64,000 bases of DNA, taken from assembly GCA_951406725.2 (NCBI GenBank), contig OX597814.1, positions 97,402,001-97,466,000 of the forward strand, given 5' to 3'. The translations under genes were made by a program, and so were the position numbers. Positions 14,863-54,912 of this stretch are shown here, in pieces (the first letter of the stretch is position 1; each line of letters begins with the position of its first letter). Under the pieces are notes generated by a model that did not search any database, was not told where the DNA came from, and worked only from the letters and a program-made list of their open reading frames with translations. The DNA comes from Octopus vulgaris. Lineage: Eukaryota.

Positions 14863-15332
14863 ACACACACAAATGAGGGTTCTCAGAAAAAGTGGTCAAC
14901 CAGCAAACACGCACATTACAAATACAAGCTGCAAGTAGAACAGTAAAAGTATGCAAGACTTTACCCAGGTTCAAAATGGAGTATTGCTTTTGTTATCTAC
15001 CAGCTCAAATAATTGAAAAGAGAAGAGAGCATACATTCATTTATACATCATCATCTTCATCATCATCTTACATGCAGGTGATACGTAAAAAGCACCATTG
15101 ACCATTGTCGATACCAGTACTGCCTGACTGGCCCTTATTCTGGCAGCACGTGAAAGCACCCACTACACTCTAGGAGTGGTTGGTGTTAGGAAGGGCATCC
15201 AGATGTAGAAACTTTGCCAGATCAGCCTCGAGACTGGTGCAGTCTTCTGGGTCGCCAGCCCTCAGTCAAACTGTGTCCAACCCATGCCAGCATGGAAAGC
15301 AGACGTTAAAGGATGGTGATGATGATATATAC

Positions 15333-15368
<36 letters not shown>

Positions 15369-15434
15369 GGTCCCGGGTTGATTCGGGGTTAACCACAGTA
15401 AATAAGGTACTCAATACATAGCAGAGTAAAATTA

Positions 15435-16078
15435 ATTTATTATATAGAAGGAGCTTCTACAGGACTAGAACTGTTTCATTCAAGAGAAATCTTCAGGAAG
15501 CTAGTTAACAAGAATTGTATTGGCATTTATACATTTAGGCAGGTTTAAAGGGGTGTTGGTGGGGGACTTTTTGGGGGTAGGCATAGCGCAAAATATCATA
15601 CTTGGGGGAGTGGTCAAGGAGTCAGTGTTAAATTAGATAGAAGAATAAATAAAAAGATAAAAAAATATATATATAAAAAAAGGGAATAGAGTTTTAGGTA
15701 AATAAGGAGATTCTCACTTATACCTATGCACATATGTATACATATATACACACACATACAAACATATATACATATACATACACACATACATACACACACA
15801 CATATATACATATATATACACTTACACATACATATACATACCTACACATACACATATATGTATACATACACACACTCACATGCATACACGTATACACACA
15901 TGTATATATACACACACGACCACACATACATATACACACAGAAAAATATATATACACATACACACACATACTCACATACACGCATACACACACAAATCCA
16001 CACACACACATGCACACACAGCACACTAGTCCCTATATACACATATATACACATACACACATATACACACACATACAT

Positions 16079-16142
<64 letters not shown>

Positions 16143-16416
16143 GTGTACCTATGCATACCTACACATACACACATATATATACACATACAAGTACAGACCC
16201 ATTCCCTAATTTTAATTTTATTATTTTCATTTATTACTTTTGTTATCTTTGATCGCTGGTCACAAACATCTTGGCTATGACAGCCAGTCCATTTATCTGT
16301 CTACTGGAAAACAAGCACTCGTTCACTCACGCACACTCTTTAGCACGTACACTCACTCATTCATACACTCATACACATACACGCACGCACGCGTTATATT
16401 CATACATACATACATC
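15435..16416 (-). repeat. Left arm of a ~1 kb inverted repeat (pLTR-like, hammerhead-bearing)
   Basis: Reverse complement of 18085-19081, including the unique blocks 15435-15735 and 16190-16400. Differs by a few substitutions and microsatellite lengths. Confidence 0.93.
15452..15502 (-). ncRNA. Type I hammerhead ribozyme motif
   Basis: Minus strand AGCUUC-CUGAAGA-UUUCUCUUGAAU-GAAA-CAG-UUCUAGUC-CUG-UA-GAAGCU. Helix I AGCUUC/GAAGCU, core CUGANGA and GAAA, helix III ACAG/CUGU, GUA cleavage triplet. Confidence 0.75.
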
Positions 16417-16838
16417 TACATACATTCATGTATATACACATACGTACGCGTACCTACAGATTCATGTCTACACTCTTAGAAGGCTAGTCTATACATATAC
16501 ACCAATAAATATAAATACACACACATACATATACACCTACATACAAATACATACATGTATATATATATATATATATATGTATTCACACATATATACACAT
16601 ATATATACATACATATATATACATATACACATATACACACATATACATATACATACACACATACACATGCATACATATACACACATACACATACATACGT
16701 ATACATACATCCATACATCCATACATCCATACATTTATACACACACCCACACGTATACATATACATACATATATATACGCGCATGCATACACATACAAAT
16801 ACATACACATACGCATATACATATACATACATACACAT

Positions 16839-16929
<91 letters not shown>

Positions 16930-16930
<1 letters not shown>

Positions 16931-17135
16931 CGGAGATGTACTCGCATAGCAAGTAATTTGATCTGAGATCGTGTGCTGAAACGAAAACAATTGCAGCGTG
17001 GGAGGTGTTTATAAGCCATTTAAGAAACACACAAAAGCCGTTCGATTCACTCCAACATTTAAGTTTAATTTGTCAAAATATTTTCGTCGCTAAAATCCGC
17101 GACCTGTTCACTGACAAAGTCCGTGCTGCATCTGT
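16930..17135 (-). mobile_element. ~200 bp Penelope-pLTR/retrozyme-like repeat inserted in (TA)n
   Basis: Complex-sequence island between TA tracts that carries a minimal hammerhead variant. Confidence 0.55.
17069..17118 (-). ncRNA. Minimal type I hammerhead, G3:C8 core variant
   Basis: Minus strand UUUGUCA-GUGAACA-G-GUCGC-GGAUUUUA-GCGAC-GAAA-AUAU-UU-UGACAAA. 7 bp helix I, 5 bp helix II, palindromic AAUAUU helix III, core GUGAACA in place of CUGANGA. Confidence 0.65.
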
Positions 17136-17509
17136 ATATATATATACATACACACACATACATATACATACATACATATACAAATATACGCACACACATA
17201 CATACATACTCATATACACATACACAAGTACATGCGTACCCATACACACACACACACACGCGCATCCATATATACACATAAGTACACACATGCGTAAAAG
17301 TATACATATATCTATGCTTACACATACACACACACAACACGCGCCTCCTTATATTCATACTTACATGCAAACTCAAAAAATAGTAAATAGTAAAATATAT
17401 ATACGCGCAGTTATTCATACATGCATACTCAAAAAATAAATAATAAATATTAAGTATATGTTCGTGCAGTTACCTATTATATAGACGGATACATACATAT
17501 AAACTTACG

Positions 17510-17563
<54 letters not shown>

Positions 17564-17804
17564 CACACACACATATATACACATATATATACATATACAC
17601 TTATATACATATATATATACACACACACACATACACATATATATATATACATACTTACACACATGTACAAATACATACACACATAGATAACTCTACGTAT
17701 CTACATATACATAAACACACGAGCGTACACGTATATGTACATATACACATACACATACACACGCATATATATACATACATACATACACATACACACATAT
17801 ATAC

Positions 17805-17891
<87 letters not shown>

Positions 17892-17987
17892 TATACATGT
17901 GTGCAAACATACATACATACTCATACACGCACACACACTTACATATACATATATACACACACTTACACACATATATACATACACATA

Positions 17988-18020
<33 letters not shown>

Positions 18021-18084
18021 GCATACATACACACACATATATATATATACATACATACACATACACGTACCTATACGTACCTAT

Positions 18085-18362
18085 GATGTATGTATGTATG
18101 TATGAATATAACGCGTGCGTGCGTGTATGTGTATGAGTGTATGAATGAGTGAGTGTACGTGCTAAGGAGTGTGCGTGAGTGAATGAGTGCTTGTTTTCCA
18201 GTAGACAGATAAATGGACTGGCTTTCATAGCCAAGATGTTTGTGACCAGCGATCAAAGATAACAAAAGTAATAAATGAAGATAATAAAATTAAAATTAGG
18301 GAATGGGTCTGTACTTGTATGTGTATATATATGTGTGTATGTGTAGGTATGCATAGGTACAC

Positions 18363-18438
<76 letters not shown>

Positions 18439-19081
18439 ATGTATGTGTGTGTATATATGTGTGTATGTGTATATATGTGTATATAGGAACTAGTGTGCTG
18501 TGTGTGCATGTGTGTGTGTGGATTTGTGTGTGTATGCGTGTATGTGAGTATGTGTGTGTATGTGTATATATATTTTTCTGTGTGTATATGTATGTGTGGT
18601 CGTGTGTGTATATATACATGTGTGTATACGTGTATGCATGTGAGTGTGTGTATGTATACATATATGTGTATGTGTAGGTATGTATATGTATGTGTAAGTG
18701 TATATATATGTATATATGTGTGTGTATGTATGTGTGTATGTATATGTATATATGTTTGTATGTGTGTGTATATATGTATACATATGTGCATAGGTATAAG
18801 TGAGAATCTCCTTATTTACCTAAAACTCTATTCCTTTTTTTATATATATATTTTTTTATCTTTTTATTTATTCTTCTATCTAATTTAACACTGACTCCTT
18901 GACCACTCCCCCAAGTATGATATTTTGCGCTATGCCTACCCCCAAAAAGTCCCCCACCAACACCCCTTTAAACCTGCCTAAATGTATAAATGCCAATACA
19001 ATTCTTGTTAACTAGCTTCCTGAAGATTTCTCTTGAATGAAACAGTTCTAGTCCTGTAGAAGCTCCTTCTATATAATAAAT
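18085..19081 (+). repeat. Right arm of the ~1 kb inverted repeat
   Basis: Reverse complement of 15435-16416; ends just after the hammerhead and an AATAAA. Confidence 0.93.
19014..19064 (+). ncRNA. Type I hammerhead ribozyme motif
   Basis: agcttc-ctgaaga-tttctcttgaat-gaaa-cag-ttctagtc-ctg-ta-gaagct; predicted cleavage after A19058 (GUA). TATA-like tataaat lies ~30 nt upstream and aataaa ~10 nt downstream. Confidence 0.75.
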
Positions 19082-19083
19082 AA

Positions 19084-19135
<52 letters not shown>

Positions 19136-19137
<2 letters not shown>

Positions 19138-19425
19138 AGGCGCAATGGCCCAGTGGTTAGGGCAGCGGACTCGCAGTCGTAGGATCGCAGGCGTTGTGAG
19201 TGTTTATTGAGCGAAAACACCTAAAAGCTCCACGACGCTCTGGCAGGGGGGGGGGGTGATCCCTGCTGTACTCTTTCACCACTCTTTCTCCCACTCTTTC
19301 TTTGTTGGCCTGCTTGCTTAGCCAGTGGGGTGGCGTCATTCAAAGGCTAAAATAATGCGAACGCATTGTGACCAGCGATGTGTAAAAACATCTGATGGTC
19401 TGGTCGGTCACGTGATCACGTGGTA
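19136..19425 (+). mobile_element. tRNA-derived SINE (family C), B box deleted
   Basis: ggaggcgcaatggcccagtggttagggcagcggactcgcagtcgtagg (tRNA-like head); body ends ggtcacgtgatcacgtg before (TA)n. Confidence 0.75.
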
Positions 19426-22890: not shown

Positions 22891-22967
<77 letters not shown>

Positions 22968-22968
<1 letters not shown>

Positions 22969-25234
22969 GGAAGGCACCTGGGCATGACAAGATCCCCAAC
23001 TTCTGGTTGAAATATCTAACAGGAATGCACAAAAAGCTGGCTGAAAACTTTAACAACGTACTAGCAGAGCCAGAGACAATGCCTGAATGGCTCACGAAGG
23101 GGAAAACCATCTTAATTCCCAAATCAAATGAAACAGAAAAACCAGAAAACTACAGACCAATAACCTGCCTCCCTACTATGTTCAAGGCATTTACTGCAGT
23201 GATATCACAAAGGCTGAACAAGCACCTGGACGAAAACAAACTGTTCCCAGAAGAGCAGAAAGGATGCCGCAAAGGCTCATATGGCTGTAAAGATCAACTA
23301 ATGATTAATAAAGCCATAACTGAAGACAGCCACAGAAAGAAGAAAGGCCTCAGTATGGCCTGGATTGACTACAAAAAGGCGTTTGATAGCATCCCCCACA
23401 CATGGATCCTCGAAACACTAGCCATTAACAAAGTAGCACCAACAATCATAAAATTCATAGAGCACTCTATGAATAAATGGCAAACAGTCCTACACCTCCA
23501 AACAAAAGAGGGACTCATGAAAACCAAAGACATCCCCATTAGAAGAGGAATATTCCAGGGAGACACGCTCTCTCCACTCCTTTTCTGCTTGGCACTGTCA
23601 CCTCTATCTGATATGCTAAATAGAACTGGATGCGGATATAAATGTTACGGCAAAACGATCAGCCACCTTTTATATATGGATGACCTAAAACTATACGCTG
23701 CAAATGACAAACAGCTGGAAACACTATTAAAGACAGTTCATGGATTTACCAAAGAAATAGATATGAAATTTGGATTAGAAAAATGCGCCAAAGTAACCAT
23801 GAAAAGAGGAAAACTAGTTAAGAGTAACAACATCACACTAGATAAAACCAATGAAATAAAAGAATTAGACCAAAGCCAAACTTACAAATACTTAGGAATC
23901 CATGAACTAGATAAGACACAACACACACAAATGAAAGAGAAAATAAAAAAAGAATATTATAGACGAGTTAGATCAATACTAAACACAGAGCTCAATGCTA
24001 AAAACAAGATAATAGGTATCAACACTTTAGCTGTCCCAGTTATAAGTTACAGCTACAATATCCTTAACTGGACACGAAATGAACTGACCAAAATAGATAG
24101 GAAAACAAGAAAAATAATGACAGGATCTAGGATGCATCACCCAAAATCTGACATAGAAAGACTATATATACAACGTATAGAAGGTGGTAGAGGCCTTATA
24201 CAGCTGGAAAACTACTATAAAATAACCACCATAGGACTGCAAAAATATCTACTTCAGAAGGAAGGAAAACTGATCCAGATAGTGGCAAAACACGAGCAAA
24301 ACAAAAAACTGTTCTCAGTATTTAAGGAAGCTGACAAATACAAACAAGAAATCATACCACCTAATAAACATGAAGAAGAAGAAGAAGAAGATGAAGAAAC
24401 AACAAAAGCTATAAAACAAATGAAATCCAAACTAAAAACAGAACAGCAACGAACCATGATAAAACGATGGCAAGAAAAGCCCCTTCATGGTAAATACTGC
24501 ACTAAACTAAACGCAAAAGAAATAGACAAAGAAAAATCCCAGCAATGGTTGAGAAGCTCAGGACTCAAAGCAGAAACAGAGGGATTTTTAATTGCAGCAC
24601 AAGACCAAAGCCTCCCCACCAGAAATTACCAAAAACATGTAATGAAAAGAAATATTACAAGTAACTGCAGAATATGTGGAGATGGACAAGAAACAATAAA
24701 TCATATTATCTCTAGCTGCCCAGTCCTGGCTAAGAAGGAATATATTCACAGACATGACAGAGTTGGAACCTACATACATTGGAAGCTATGCCAACATTAT
24801 GGAATAACAACAGAAAAAAGATGGTATAGGCACACACCAGAAAAGGTCACAGAAAACGAGAAAGCAACCATACTCTGGGATATGCCGATACACACAGATA
24901 GAGAAATTAAGGCCAACAGACCAGATATAGTTGTCAGAGATCATGAAGAAAAAAATGCTTTTTAATTGATGTATCAATACCGGCAGATGACAACGTGTCT
25001 CTAAAAGAAATGGAGAAACTCTCAAAATACAAAGACCTGGAAATAGAGGTAACTAGAATGTGGAATCTGAAAACAGAAACAATTCCTATCATAGTAGGTG
25101 CATTAGGCATGATAAAAAAATATTCAGACAAATACATAACAAAAACACCAGGACTTACAAACACATATAACATACAGAAAATTGCACTACTAGGCACTGC
25201 CCACATCCTACGCAGAACACTTTCCATACAATAA
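22968..25234 (+). pseudogene. Reverse transcriptase - zinc knuckle - restriction-like endonuclease ORF with one -1 frameshift at the A-run 24949-24955
   Basis: WKAPGHDKI, ENYRPITCL, DYKKAFDS, GIFQGDTLSP, YMDD, YKYLG, CRICGDGQETINHIISSC, RHD, RPDIVV; after the frameshift CFLIDVSIP...EKLSKYKDL...LLGTAHILRRTL*. Confidence 0.93.
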
Positions 25235-33381: not shown

Positions 33382-33610
33382 AGGCGCCGAACTGGCAGAA
33401 ACGTTAGCACGCCGGGCGAAATGCTTAGCGGTATTTCGTCTGCCGTTACGTTCTGAGTTCAAATTCCGCCGAGGTCGACTTTGCCTTTCATCCTTTCGGG
33501 GTCGATAAATTAAGTACCAGTTACGCACTGGGGTCGATGTAATCGGCTTAATCCGTTTGTCTGTCCTTGTTTGTCCCCTTTGTGTTTAGCCCTTTGTAGG
33601 TAGTAAAGAT
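33382..33610 (+). mobile_element. SINE family B, well-preserved copy
   Basis: aaggcgccgaactggcagaaacgttagc...gagttcaaattccgccgaggtcgactttgcctttcatcctttcggggtcgataaattaagtacc. Confidence 0.88.
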
Positions 33611-43014: not shown

Positions 43015-44098
43015 TAATATAACTTAGAATAACTTCGAAAGGTTTTAGCCAGTATTGGCCCAGGCCATGTCTAACTTAATAGCACCACCTGGCGAAGTCT
43101 TTCAATTCAGAATTTGGGCACCAAGGCCCATTCGAGCAGAGAGTTATTGTTTGAGGAGACATATCCGGGTGTGGGTGGTTTGTCCGGGACTGTTTGAAGG
43201 AATTTGTCCAAAGACTTCTTGAATTTTGTGTGGTCAGTTTCTGTTTTGACGTGTCCTGGTGTAATGTTGAAGAGAGCGGGTCCAATTGAGGTGAAATAAT
43301 TGTGCCGTATTGTTGTTATGAGATACGATTTAGATTTTTGTTGTGGACAGATGGCACAGGGTCCAAGTCTTGGATGTATTTTGAAGGTGATACCAACATC
43401 ATTTGGACAGTGCTGATGGAATATTTTCCTCATCATACAGATAATGTAGCGTTCACGGCGTCGTTGGAGTGCATACAGTTTCAGCTTTTCCCGTCGACCC
43501 CAGTAGTCAAGGTCTGACATGCCATCTATCTTTTTCGTGATTTACCTTTGGGGAGCTTCAACTTTCATATTATTCCGTTTCGTGTAGGGAGACCACAGTG
43601 GACAGCAGTATTCAAGGTGAGGTCGGGCAAAAATGGAGAAGAGAAGGATAATGGTGTGGGAATCTCTCGACTGGAAGGTTCTGATAATCCAGGAGCACAT
43701 TCTGCGGGCCATGTCAACTTTGCTGCTTATATGTGTAGCCCAGTTTATGTTGTTGTCCACAGTTATTCCCAAGTCTCTGATGTTGTTAGACGCCATGAGA
43801 GTTTCACCAGAAGGAAGGGAGTATGGGAGTTTCGGAGCGTCCTCCCTTCCAAAGTGGATCAATTCGAATTTGTCTTCGTTTAGCAACATGTTGTTCTTTT
43901 CCGACCATTGGACAACAGCCAGTAGGTCTGACTGAAGGTTTTTCCGGTCATCCACGCCATTGATGACCTTCTGAAGCTTGGAATCATCAGCGAAGATTCT
44001 GATGTTACTGTGCTTGATGATGTCAGTGATGTCATTAATGTAGATGATGAAGAAAAGTGGGCCCAACACAGTGCCTTGTGGGACATCACTACTGACTT
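43015..44098 (-). mobile_element. 5'-truncated CR1-group LINE; RT ORF 44098-43107 with one in-frame TAA (43542-43544)
   Basis: VPQGTVLGPLFFIIYIND, IFADDSKL, DLGITVD, RPHLEYCCPLWSP, LQRRRER. The two listed ORFs are in the same frame. (TA)n on both sides. Confidence 0.92.
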
Positions 44099-44139
44099 TA
44101 TATATACAAATACATATAGATATTTATAAATATATATTT

Positions 44140-52504: not shown

Positions 52505-54912
52505 AAGGCAGTCAGTCAGCAGCATAGTTAACGCGCCGGAAAAAAAATGATTAGCGGCGTGTCGTCCGGCTTAAATGTTTTGAATTCAAATTCCGCCGAG
52601 GCCGACTTTGCCTTTGATAAAATAATGTACCAATCAAGTACTGGGATTGATGTAATCGATTTACCCCCGTCCCTTAGGAACTGCTAGCTTTGTGCCAAAA
52701 TTAGAAAGAATTATTAAGGCAGCGAGCTGGCAAAGCCGTTAGAGCGTCGGATGAAATGTTTAGCGACATTTCTTCCGGCTCTTAACGTTCTGAGTCCAGA
52801 TTACACCAAAGTCAACTTTGTCTTTCATCCTTTCAGGTTTGATAAAATAAGGTACCAGATAAGTTCTGAGATCGATGTAATCGACTAATCTGCACTCACA
52901 AATGCTCGGCCTTATGCCAAATTTTGAGACAATTTATATTTAGGCAGCGAGCTGGCAGAATCGTTGCTGCGTCGGACAAAATGCTTGGCAGCATTTCTTC
53001 CGGCTGTTATACTTTGGCCTTCATCCCGTTGTGGATTGATAAAATAATTACCAGTTGAGTACTGGATTTGATGTAATCGGCTAACACCACATACCCTGAA
53101 ATTTCAAATCTGCATATAATAATAAAAATAATAATTCTTTCTAAACCAGCAACTTATAAGGGAATGGAAAGCCTACTACATTGACTCCGGACTGGTATTT
53201 ATTTTATCGATCCCGAAAAGACGGAAGACAAAGTTGTCCTCTTCTGGATTTGAGCTCAGAACGTAAAGAGCCTGAGAAAACGATTCTGTCAGCTTGCCAC
53301 CTTCAAAATAATTGTTTCAATTTTTGGCACAAAGCCATTAATTAAGAGGAAAGGGTTAGTCGATCAAATTGACCCAGCTAATGACCGCTACTTTATTTTT
53401 ATCGACCCAGAAAGAATGAAAGAAAAGTTGACTTTGGCGAGATTTTAACACAGAATGTAAAGAACCGGAAGAAGCATTTTGTTCGGCGCACTAACGATTC
53501 TGCTAGCTTGCCTACTTCTAAGATAGACACTTTCAGTGGAAAGATAATGACAAGAAATTGTAGCGGCTAATTTAGGAATTGATCTAATATCATCGTTCTA
53601 AGTAAAATCTTTAGAAAAAGGTTAAACCTAAAATACGAAGTTTCAATGAGTTTGGAAGAACAAATATTTGTATCAAGAGTATCGGATTGATACAAACAGT
53701 AAAGTTACTAAAAAAAATAAAGAAAAAACAATGTGTATGTGTGTGTGTGTGTGGGGGGAATATAGCTGTTATTTCTGATATGTTGAGCTTCTTTGTTTCC
53801 GAGAATTTTAGTGTTTCTTTCTTTTTGGTGGCACTTGGATATTTTTTTTTTTGAATGAGTTATTAAATGAGTTATTAAAACAACCTTGACTTAATAAGAC
53901 CAAGAAAGCTGCATTCTTCATTGATGTTTCTAATAATGACATAAAACGAAGAGCAGTAATTTGTCTTCATCGTTAAAGAACTGAAGGAATCAATATTAAA
54001 ATTATATGTGTGAACTGAAGTATTAAAATATTAAGTACAAACCCTTCCCATTATTTAACGATTTTCTTGAAGCATCGTAATTTCTCAGGAGAAATCATTC
54101 CTTTGTAATATCTCGATGGGAGTCCAAAATATAGAACATTGAAAAGCTTGAAGAGCAGTATCCAGAATTATTTATTCAATTTCAAATCTTTTGATAATAA
54201 TAATCATTTCTACTATAGGTACACGGCTAGAAAGCTGTGGTAATGTGGGTAGAGAAGGGTTAGTCGATTACATCAACCCCAGTGATCAAATGGTACTTAC
54301 TCTATCGACACTAAATTCTCCGGCGGAATTTGAACTCAAGTATTAATATTGTCCTTTCACACTTAGTCGGAGTGGGTAAGTCGATTACATCGACCACAGT
54401 ACTCAACTGAAACTTATTTTATCGACCTCCAAAGGATGAAAGACAAAGTCAATCTCGGTGGAATTTGAACTCAAAACGTAAAGAAGGGCGAAATGCCGCC
54501 AAGCATTTTGTCTTGTATGCTAACGATTCTGCCAACTCGCCGCCCTCCAGCGTACTAATGTAGTTTTAATACTATCTACTATCGGTACAAAGCCTGGAAT
54601 TTGGAGTTGGTGGCTTGTCGAATCCCAATATTCAACAGGTATTTATTTTATCGAACCCCGAAAGGATGAAAGACAAAGTCGACTTCGGTGAATTTGAACT
54701 CAGAACGTAAAGATCCGGAAGAAATTCCACTAAGCATTTTGTCCGGCGTGCTAACAATTCTGCCAACTCGTCGCCTTTATGGTTTAAAATTTTAGCACAA
54801 GGCCAGCAATTTTAAAGGAGGAGTAAGTTGCTTGCGTCGAGCCCTAGTGTTCAGCTGATACTTTCATCAAAATAATGAAAGACAAAGTTGACATCGGTGG
54901 AATTTGAACTCT
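52505..54912. mobile_element. Cluster of ~9 SINE family B copies
   Basis: Three plus-strand copies head-to-tail (~52505, 52715, 52942), two minus copies (53135-53515) and four minus copies (54205-54912). Confidence 0.8.

Follow-up and report, generated by a model that had tools for sequence, protein, structure and literature searches.

A 5'-truncated, inverted copy of a Penelope-like element with hammerhead motifs, of putative Hydra-clade affiliation, in the genome of Octopus vulgaris

The DNA studied is a window of 64,000 nucleotides (nt) from Octopus vulgaris (contig OX597814.1 of assembly GCA_951406725.2, positions 97,402,001 to 97,466,000), in which positions 15364–19085 hold an inverted repeat with a type I hammerhead motif near each outer end. 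[quoted passage not shown] The parent family appears to belong to the Hydra clade, according to protein motifs and by-eye reading; it would add a member to a clade already described, and the locus itself is ordinary for its class. The copy was probably inserted in a (TA)n tract by twin priming on sense RNA, its arms being joined head to head. The arms and the spacer between them share their identity with the 3' untranslated region (UTR) of a parent whose open reading frame (ORF) is intact, the target is (TA)n, and inverted pairs carry one tail each. Among the genomic relatives, 5' ends cluster at the base that opens helix I of the hammerhead, often with one G added, and ORF-bearing copies pass through this point.

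Parent Element and Clade Affiliation

The parent, recovered at loci L046/L051, comprises, in order, an inverted arm, a 5'-truncated ORF, the 3' UTR, the hammerhead, the extension, the 5' UTR and the intact ORF. Its 3' UTR is 3,125 nt long and microsatellite-rich, and the intact ORF (at L051) encodes P0001, a product of 713 amino acids read from a single ORF with reverse transcriptase (RT) and GIY-YIG domains. The left arm of the window together with the spacer aligns with the parent 3' UTR at 94% over 1,595 nt and at 90% over 976 nt, and the right arm aligns with its last kilobase. A genome-wide look for a Penelope ORF next to the arm, as suggested in the original prediction, thus found one; the non-autonomous family proposed there is not sustained, since the 3' UTR that makes up the arms and the spacer belongs to a family that is autonomous. 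The spacer is microsatellite-rich, as had been described, but it is not neutral filler, for it continues the left arm as part of that UTR.

Replication of the whole inverted unit as a non-autonomous family, resembling retrozymes or miniature inverted-repeat transposable elements, would agree with the lack of PLE coding sequence in the window by tblastn (an absence of protein coding already noted there) and with the existence of short copies lacking an ORF by the thousand, among which 676 share one and the same junction. This explanation is nevertheless very improbable. The arms and spacer are collinear with the ORF-bearing parent; arm lengths and junctions vary by locus, the core-to-core distance in inverted pairs ranging from 6 to 7,399 nt; the palindromes with the identical junction occur in several subfamilies, as expected of repeated fresh origin; and animal retrozymes are tandem units (bioRxiv 2026.07.22.740005).

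Homologues of P0001 numbered 1,118 among 8,000 scored candidates, mostly ~40% identical. A GIY-YIG match was obtained in homologue P0041 (E 1e-5, above the Pfam cut-off) and an RVT_1 match in homologue P0088 (E 9e-6, below the Pfam cut-off). The Hydra motifs RWR (RWK in most aligned homologues) and DKT are present in P0001, together with a linker of the form CxCX5C (CNCPDKTTC) and, near the end, CxxC (CDLC) and CxH (CMH); CCHH is absent, with a single unconserved cysteine between the VY and YIG motifs. Hydra-clade elements, e.g., Hydra-1_Obim and Hydra-1_Amil, are alike in the RWK-type motif, DKT, CxCX5C, CxxC, CxH and absence of CCHH, in the single ORF with RT and C-terminal GIY-YIG, and in the (TA)n target, the U10.1-U11.1 mismatch, the 4-bp helix III and the inverted 5'-truncated copy (PMC8557442). 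The (TA)n insertion preference is seen at the 3' ends of copies. Features of endonuclease-containing (EN+) PLEs were found as well: a pseudo-long terminal repeat (pLTR) with a hammerhead, partial tandems, an inverted 5'-truncated copy and a tail at one end. The Penelope-type pLTR hammerheads, inverted insertion and one-end tail named in the original prediction agree with the parent and with the genomic copies.

In length the element departs from the clade, since a 2.1-kb ORF and a 3.1-kb 3' UTR bring it to ~5.4 kb, whereas Hydra elements are generally <3 kb, which is a tendency in the paper and not a criterion (PMC8557442). It is not Hydra-1_Obim, whose hammerhead and protein are different, and it is not in the Hydra supplement (PMC8557442), where two exact peptide probes gave no match. 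The family may already be catalogued in the repeat library of PMC13282606; the available part of the main text of that paper makes no mention of hammerheads. Two points tell against the overall reading: P0001 itself has no significant Pfam or PDB match, and the clade call is based on motifs and by-eye reading, not on a tree. The Nematis clade, an initial guess, was dropped, the CX2-5CxxC linker and CCHH that mark Nematis and Neptune being absent.

Several further observations were made on the parent and its relatives. The parent 3' UTR contains a nested non-microsatellite piece of ~200 bp (L046:5595-5805), which resembles an independent repeat beside L006 and is apparently cargo. In the intact copy a few bases of helix III are deleted from the downstream hammerhead (L051:5364-5438) and a segment of the 3' UTR is missing, so that the two units of this tandem are not alike. 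An open frame of exactly 506 codons is common to nine copies (L061, L064-L067, L069, L073, L076 and L078), and a broken 506-codon source copy may have been mobilised in trans; frames of at least 718 codons occur in only two of the 44 close matches listed. A sister Hydra family (712 amino acids, 43% identical, L103:1613-3750 and many other loci) has dozens of open 727-codon frames. Its hammerhead lies at the same place with different helices: helix II has 2 bp, an A-A closure and the loop GCAA, while helix III requires a dimer.

Organization of the Inverted Repeat

The arms, at 15431–16415 and 18085–19085, are reverse complements over ~985 columns with five substitutions (about 0.5%) and approximately four indels of microsatellite length, so that the near-identical inverted arms of ~1 kb in the original prediction are real; their outermost 253 nt are 100% complementary. 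Each arm, read outward, presents a C-rich tract, TATAAAT, the hammerhead motif and AATAAA, as had been claimed. The motif reads AGCUUC-CUGAAGA-U-UUC/UCUU/GAA-U-GAAA-CAG-UUCUAGUC-CUG-UA-GAAGCU on either arm. Tracts of (TA)n flank the locus on the left (15325–15363) and on the right (19086–19102) and mask any target-site duplication; the host genome (2.8 Gb) is rich in microsatellites.

The left end lies on the reverse strand. It starts with the PLE tail (15364–15430), which would lie between the two priming sites and is found, as had been noticed, beyond the arm end on the left only; the parent sequence runs on from it into the 5' UTR, and the ATG there lies 182–183 nt from the first hammerhead base. 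There follow an AATAAA (15436–15441), the AT-rich proximal end point used by tail-less arms, the left Hydra-type type I hammerhead motif (15452–15502, predicted cut after A15458, putative capped start A15502) and a TATA box (15525–15531), 29 nt above the putative start. The long arm (15532–18076), which consists of the shared arm to 16415 and the spacer, is the 3' part of the parent 3' UTR, truncated at its 5' side ~830 nt past the stop codon of the parent.

Within the spacer, 16929–17133 (reverse strand) is a 205-bp insert unrelated to the parent element: a nested copy of a second PLE-like repeat, placed in (TA)n and beginning at what would be its own cap site. As read from the letters, it contains a minimal hammerhead motif (17069–17118, reverse strand) with a swapped G3:C8 in the core (GUGAACA) and a palindromic AAUAUU helix III.

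The inversion junction (18077–18084) is an 8-nt filler that is duplicated locally and, like the right end, lies on the forward strand. Beyond it come the short inverted arm (18085–18984), which is the last 0.9 kb of the parent 3' UTR including the C-rich tract, a TATA box (18985–18991) and the right hammerhead motif (19014–19064), with a putative capped start at A19014 and a predicted cut after A19058, a position correctly placed on the motif beforehand. A predicted 8-bp hairpin (19055–19073) would mask the cleavage site together with the 3' strand of helix I, and the AATAAA (19075–19080) opens the tail-less end (19075–19085), which runs into (TA)n.

Hammerhead Motif

The type I hammerhead core (CUGANGA, GAAA and UH) and its three helices are all present. 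The Rfam search that had been suggested as a check gave no hammerhead for 18940–19085 at E<=10, nor among the 150 of 226 window matches listed, and unconstrained folding gave no significant z-score relative to shuffles. Across 170 copies the shared internal variants number five, each of them at N7 or within loop II or III (p about 0.002), and one of them extends the loop III palindrome from CUAG to ACUAGU. Compensatory covariation within the family, which is too young, was not found, a point to be set against the overall reading.

The U10.1-U11.1 pair is a known active mismatch (PMC3088659), and both this mismatch and a 4-bp helix III occur in many Hydra-clade hammerheads (PMC8557442 File S2), contrary to the earlier idea that the 4-bp helix III sets this motif apart from those of PLEs. 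The palindromic loop III of 8 nt is unusual, as is the long 3' UTR; in the Hydra rows of the same File S2 the loop has 1–3 nt. Monomer cleavage, formerly read from helix III, is doubtful, because the hairpin is predicted to hide the cleavage site and helix III is predicted to favour dimers (−1.4 kcal/mol in the monomer and −12.8 or −15.2 kcal/mol in the dimer). In RNA beginning at the putative cap, the hairpin is predicted to leave helix I ~2% formed. These predictions would fit the dimer model of PLE hammerheads (PMC4209133; PMC6765202) and the use of uncut RNA as the main template in vitro (PMC11167929).

As for the nested second repeat, it is a high-copy sequence (2,206 first-look candidates; L126-L137, L176-L195) whose inverted pairs carry a single tail and whose upstream region is rich in microsatellites. 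U3:A8 has been reported as a natural core swap (PMC3088659, PMC4209133), and G3:C8 is an engineered rescue in PMC11167929. No ORF of this family was found in two matches, and tblastn with P0001 on 34 loci was empty.

Copy Number and Outer Ends

A first look with the hammerhead end gave 998 candidates, and 40 scored copies were 99–100% identical. The pattern of the hammerhead core had 6,651 genome matches against 84 for its reversed control; therefore, the cores are not due to chance. Among the loci fetched, exactly one arm carries the tail in 60 of 62 inverted pairs (no tail in one, two tails in one), a count weakened by the pairs having been drawn from search lists and not at random. In 22 longer pairs the tail arm was longer in eight, shorter in six and similar in eight, a rough estimate of skew from which priming looks symmetric. 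Microhomology of AT type with the target is found at both end points.

That the inverted structure is an assembly or fold-back read artefact, the outcome named beforehand as a refutation, has a negligible probability. Long inverted repeats in microsatellites are indeed prone to error; against this, the five arm substitutions split two and three relative to the parent, the ends differ by the tail according to the rule common to those 60 loci, and the junction has filler.

5' Ends of the Copies

At 676 loci a perfect palindrome has its joint at the AGCT with which helix I begins, as compared with 15 joined at the AGCT after the cleavage site and 29 single-core foldbacks. A G directly precedes AGCTTC in 972 cores. 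All 30 inspected G-preceded loci begin at that G, but the inverted arm could supply it in 20 of them and only 10 are unambiguous, which lessens their value for the reading proposed here. Taken from the helix-I palindromes and the G-preceded cores, at least 2,324 of the 6,651 cores (35%) have their start on the first base of the hammerhead; another 2,776 reach beyond the TATA box.

Where the copy abuts (TA)n directly, so that an arm cannot be the source of the base, AGCTTC is preceded by G in 41, C in 11, A in 8 and T in 13 of 73 distinct sites (75 matches tallied by hand, two duplicates dropped), and native promoter-bearing copies have T, C or A at that position, with G in none of 86. Spaced palindromes carry G on 80 of the 100 arm ends listed (50 of 133 loci; hand tally), often on both arms. 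Starts at the cleavage site are rare (17 matches) and none of them shows the extra G; starts 3–30 nt upstream are scattered (~17 of 100 listed, versus 30 with G at +1). The TATA box is 29 nt upstream in each of 100 listed copies, while the intervening bases diverge among subfamilies. In the nested repeat family, the native base is T, a TATA-like box is found at −30 and helix I is 15 nt away from the start marked by G, which falls outside it; G was seen in five of six truncated copies and, at 34 sites (42 matches, eight duplicates dropped), the tally was G 16, C 2, A 0 and T 16.

On these sequence data the extra G is likely a cap footprint. An untemplated 5' G has been taken as a copied cap for L1 and SVA (PMC4859970). 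No report of a cap footprint, strong-stop products or cap-terminated mini-elements in PLEs was found in the literature searched, which did not cover key subscription papers, and neither a cap footprint nor cap-terminated mini-elements are reported in the available parts of PMC3846280 or PMC11167929.

An RT pause or RNA processing at the edge of the folded hammerhead, with G as a terminal addition, would also place a hot spot at helix I, where it does lie, and would suit the ORF-bearing copies that read past it freely and the absence of the G signal in the sister family. It is an unlikely explanation, given that the TATA spacing is fixed in spite of the divergent intervening bases, that the start of the nested family lies away from helix I and below a TATA-like box, and that cleavage-site junctions are without G.

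Proposed Mechanism

The probable course is as follows. The TATA box would direct a capped RNA starting at the first base of helix I. Both nicked strands of the target would prime reverse transcription on sense RNA, using two sites that are close together and lie immediately downstream of the hammerhead, one strand at the AT-rich site after the hammerhead, giving the tail-less arm, and the other at the end of the tail; the two cDNAs would then be joined head to head via microhomology or filler. In vitro, PAc is primed internally at two sites that bound the tail, both strands are extended and uncut RNA is used (PMC11167929). Short RNAs with a single hammerhead would remain uncut and RT would reach the cap, yielding G-marked solo copies and palindromic mini-elements of ~190 bp. 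Promoter-bearing ends such as the left arm probably yield short capped RNAs, which would give rise to mini-elements by copying in trans.

That the template was sense RNA with two primers is favoured because an extra G is found on each arm and the outer ends are not the same. Self-priming by fold-back, with an antisense strand as template, has been put forward for the Penelopes of rotifers and would produce head-to-head structures too, and palindromic junctions are common; both palindrome arms belong to one subfamily in 49 of 50 loci listed, and the paper that sets out the fold-back model also leaves a sense template open (PMC3846280). This route is rather improbable here, for it leaves unexplained the two different outer ends in the 60 of 62 pairs and the extra G on both arms across filler bases, and a stronger GTTAAC palindrome a few bases upstream is used in just one or two of 50 loci listed.

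Long copies require a different template from the short ones. The start of the ORF is held by 30 loci, of which 26 reach the first hammerhead base; among these ORF-bearing copies 23 pass the TATA box, two go ~10 nt further and one stops at the putative cap. One stop in 26 departs from the 35% given above (p 2e-4), and a single linear capped template is therefore rejected for the long copies, which need a circle, a jump or a read-through template. Such a template would have the 3' UTR continuous with the hammerhead and the tail. Dimer cleavage by the two hammerheads of a full-length RNA, followed by circularisation, is tentatively preferred; a jump from the cap and a read-through RNA are each somewhat less plausible. 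On an estimate lying between these two grades, the genome may preserve traces of the entire PLE cycle: capped RNA, dimer cleavage of full-length RNA with its 5' and 3' hammerheads paired via the palindromic loop III, a circle round which RT would run to give partial tandems, and thousands of solo pLTR ends, the left arm among them, whose short single-hammerhead RNAs would be unable to cut and would be copied in trans by twin priming into cap-marked, palindromic mini-elements with two ribozymes. The ribozyme would then act as a length gate, and each long insertion would spread a 3-kb microsatellite cargo.

Some results weigh against the mechanism as a whole. The pass-through of the ORF-bearing copies just described is one of them. 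No subfamily chimeras across the hammerhead were found in ~40 informative copies, which leaves an inter-RNA jump without support there. In the sister 712-amino-acid family the G signal was absent from the 100 matches listed out of 1,325, where a native AT tract confounds the comparison, and the extra G could also be explained by terminal-transferase activity at an uncapped end.

Comparison with Known Systems

An inverted arrangement of pLTRs, one of them tailed, is what published descriptions typically show (PMC3846280; PMC8557442). The Penelopes of Adineta vaga (PMC3846280) and PAc of Anolis (PMC11167929) share with the present element the head-to-head pLTRs, the tail at one end, the AT-rich target, two adjacent end points bounding the tail, a hammerhead near the ORF start and an uncut RNA template. 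They differ in the tail, which is 30–40 nt and partly coding in them and ~60–70 nt and non-coding here, and in the AT microhomology with the target that both end points show here. A TATA-less internal promoter is described for the Penelope of D. virilis (PMC2377424), unlike the TATA reading given here.

With L1 twin priming (PMC4859970) the proposed route shares a second-strand primer, small indels at the junction and the extra 5' G. Here, by contrast, the two primers would begin almost at one point, which makes each arm a duplicate of the other. The two parts produced by L1 twin priming are successive segments. Non-LTR retrozymes (bioRxiv 10.64898/2026.07.22.740005) share the type I hammerhead, the lack of an ORF at the locus and a PLE origin; they are short tandem units, whereas the locus described here is an inverted truncation, of variable length among copies, of a coding parent, and is not assigned to them.

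Other Features of the Window

The right flank is followed by a SINE-like (short interspersed element) repeat at 19137–19420, similar to sequence beside L026 and L029. A dispersed repeat of ~170 bp, probably a SINE, is present at 1130–1297, 33390–33557 and 54377–54544 in both orientations, its copies being 81–86% alike. A frame of 679 amino acids with non-LTR reverse transcriptase motifs extends over 22926–24965 (forward strand), and broken reverse transcriptase frames resembling those of long interspersed elements lie at 43107–44123 (reverse strand).

Implications

The route of inverted and tandem insertion, the template strand and the role of the hammerhead are questions left open in PMC3846280 and PMC8557442. 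Because this family is young, has thousands of copies with sharply defined ends and retains an intact ORF, it makes such questions of PLE replication testable. From the reading proposed follow the precise base that is capped, the pair of priming sites, templates left uncut in the case of short copies and a continuous template for the long ones. For the octopus, the family would represent a route by which long microsatellite tracts and kilobase inverted repeats, a potential source of double-stranded RNA, may be seeded across a large animal genome.

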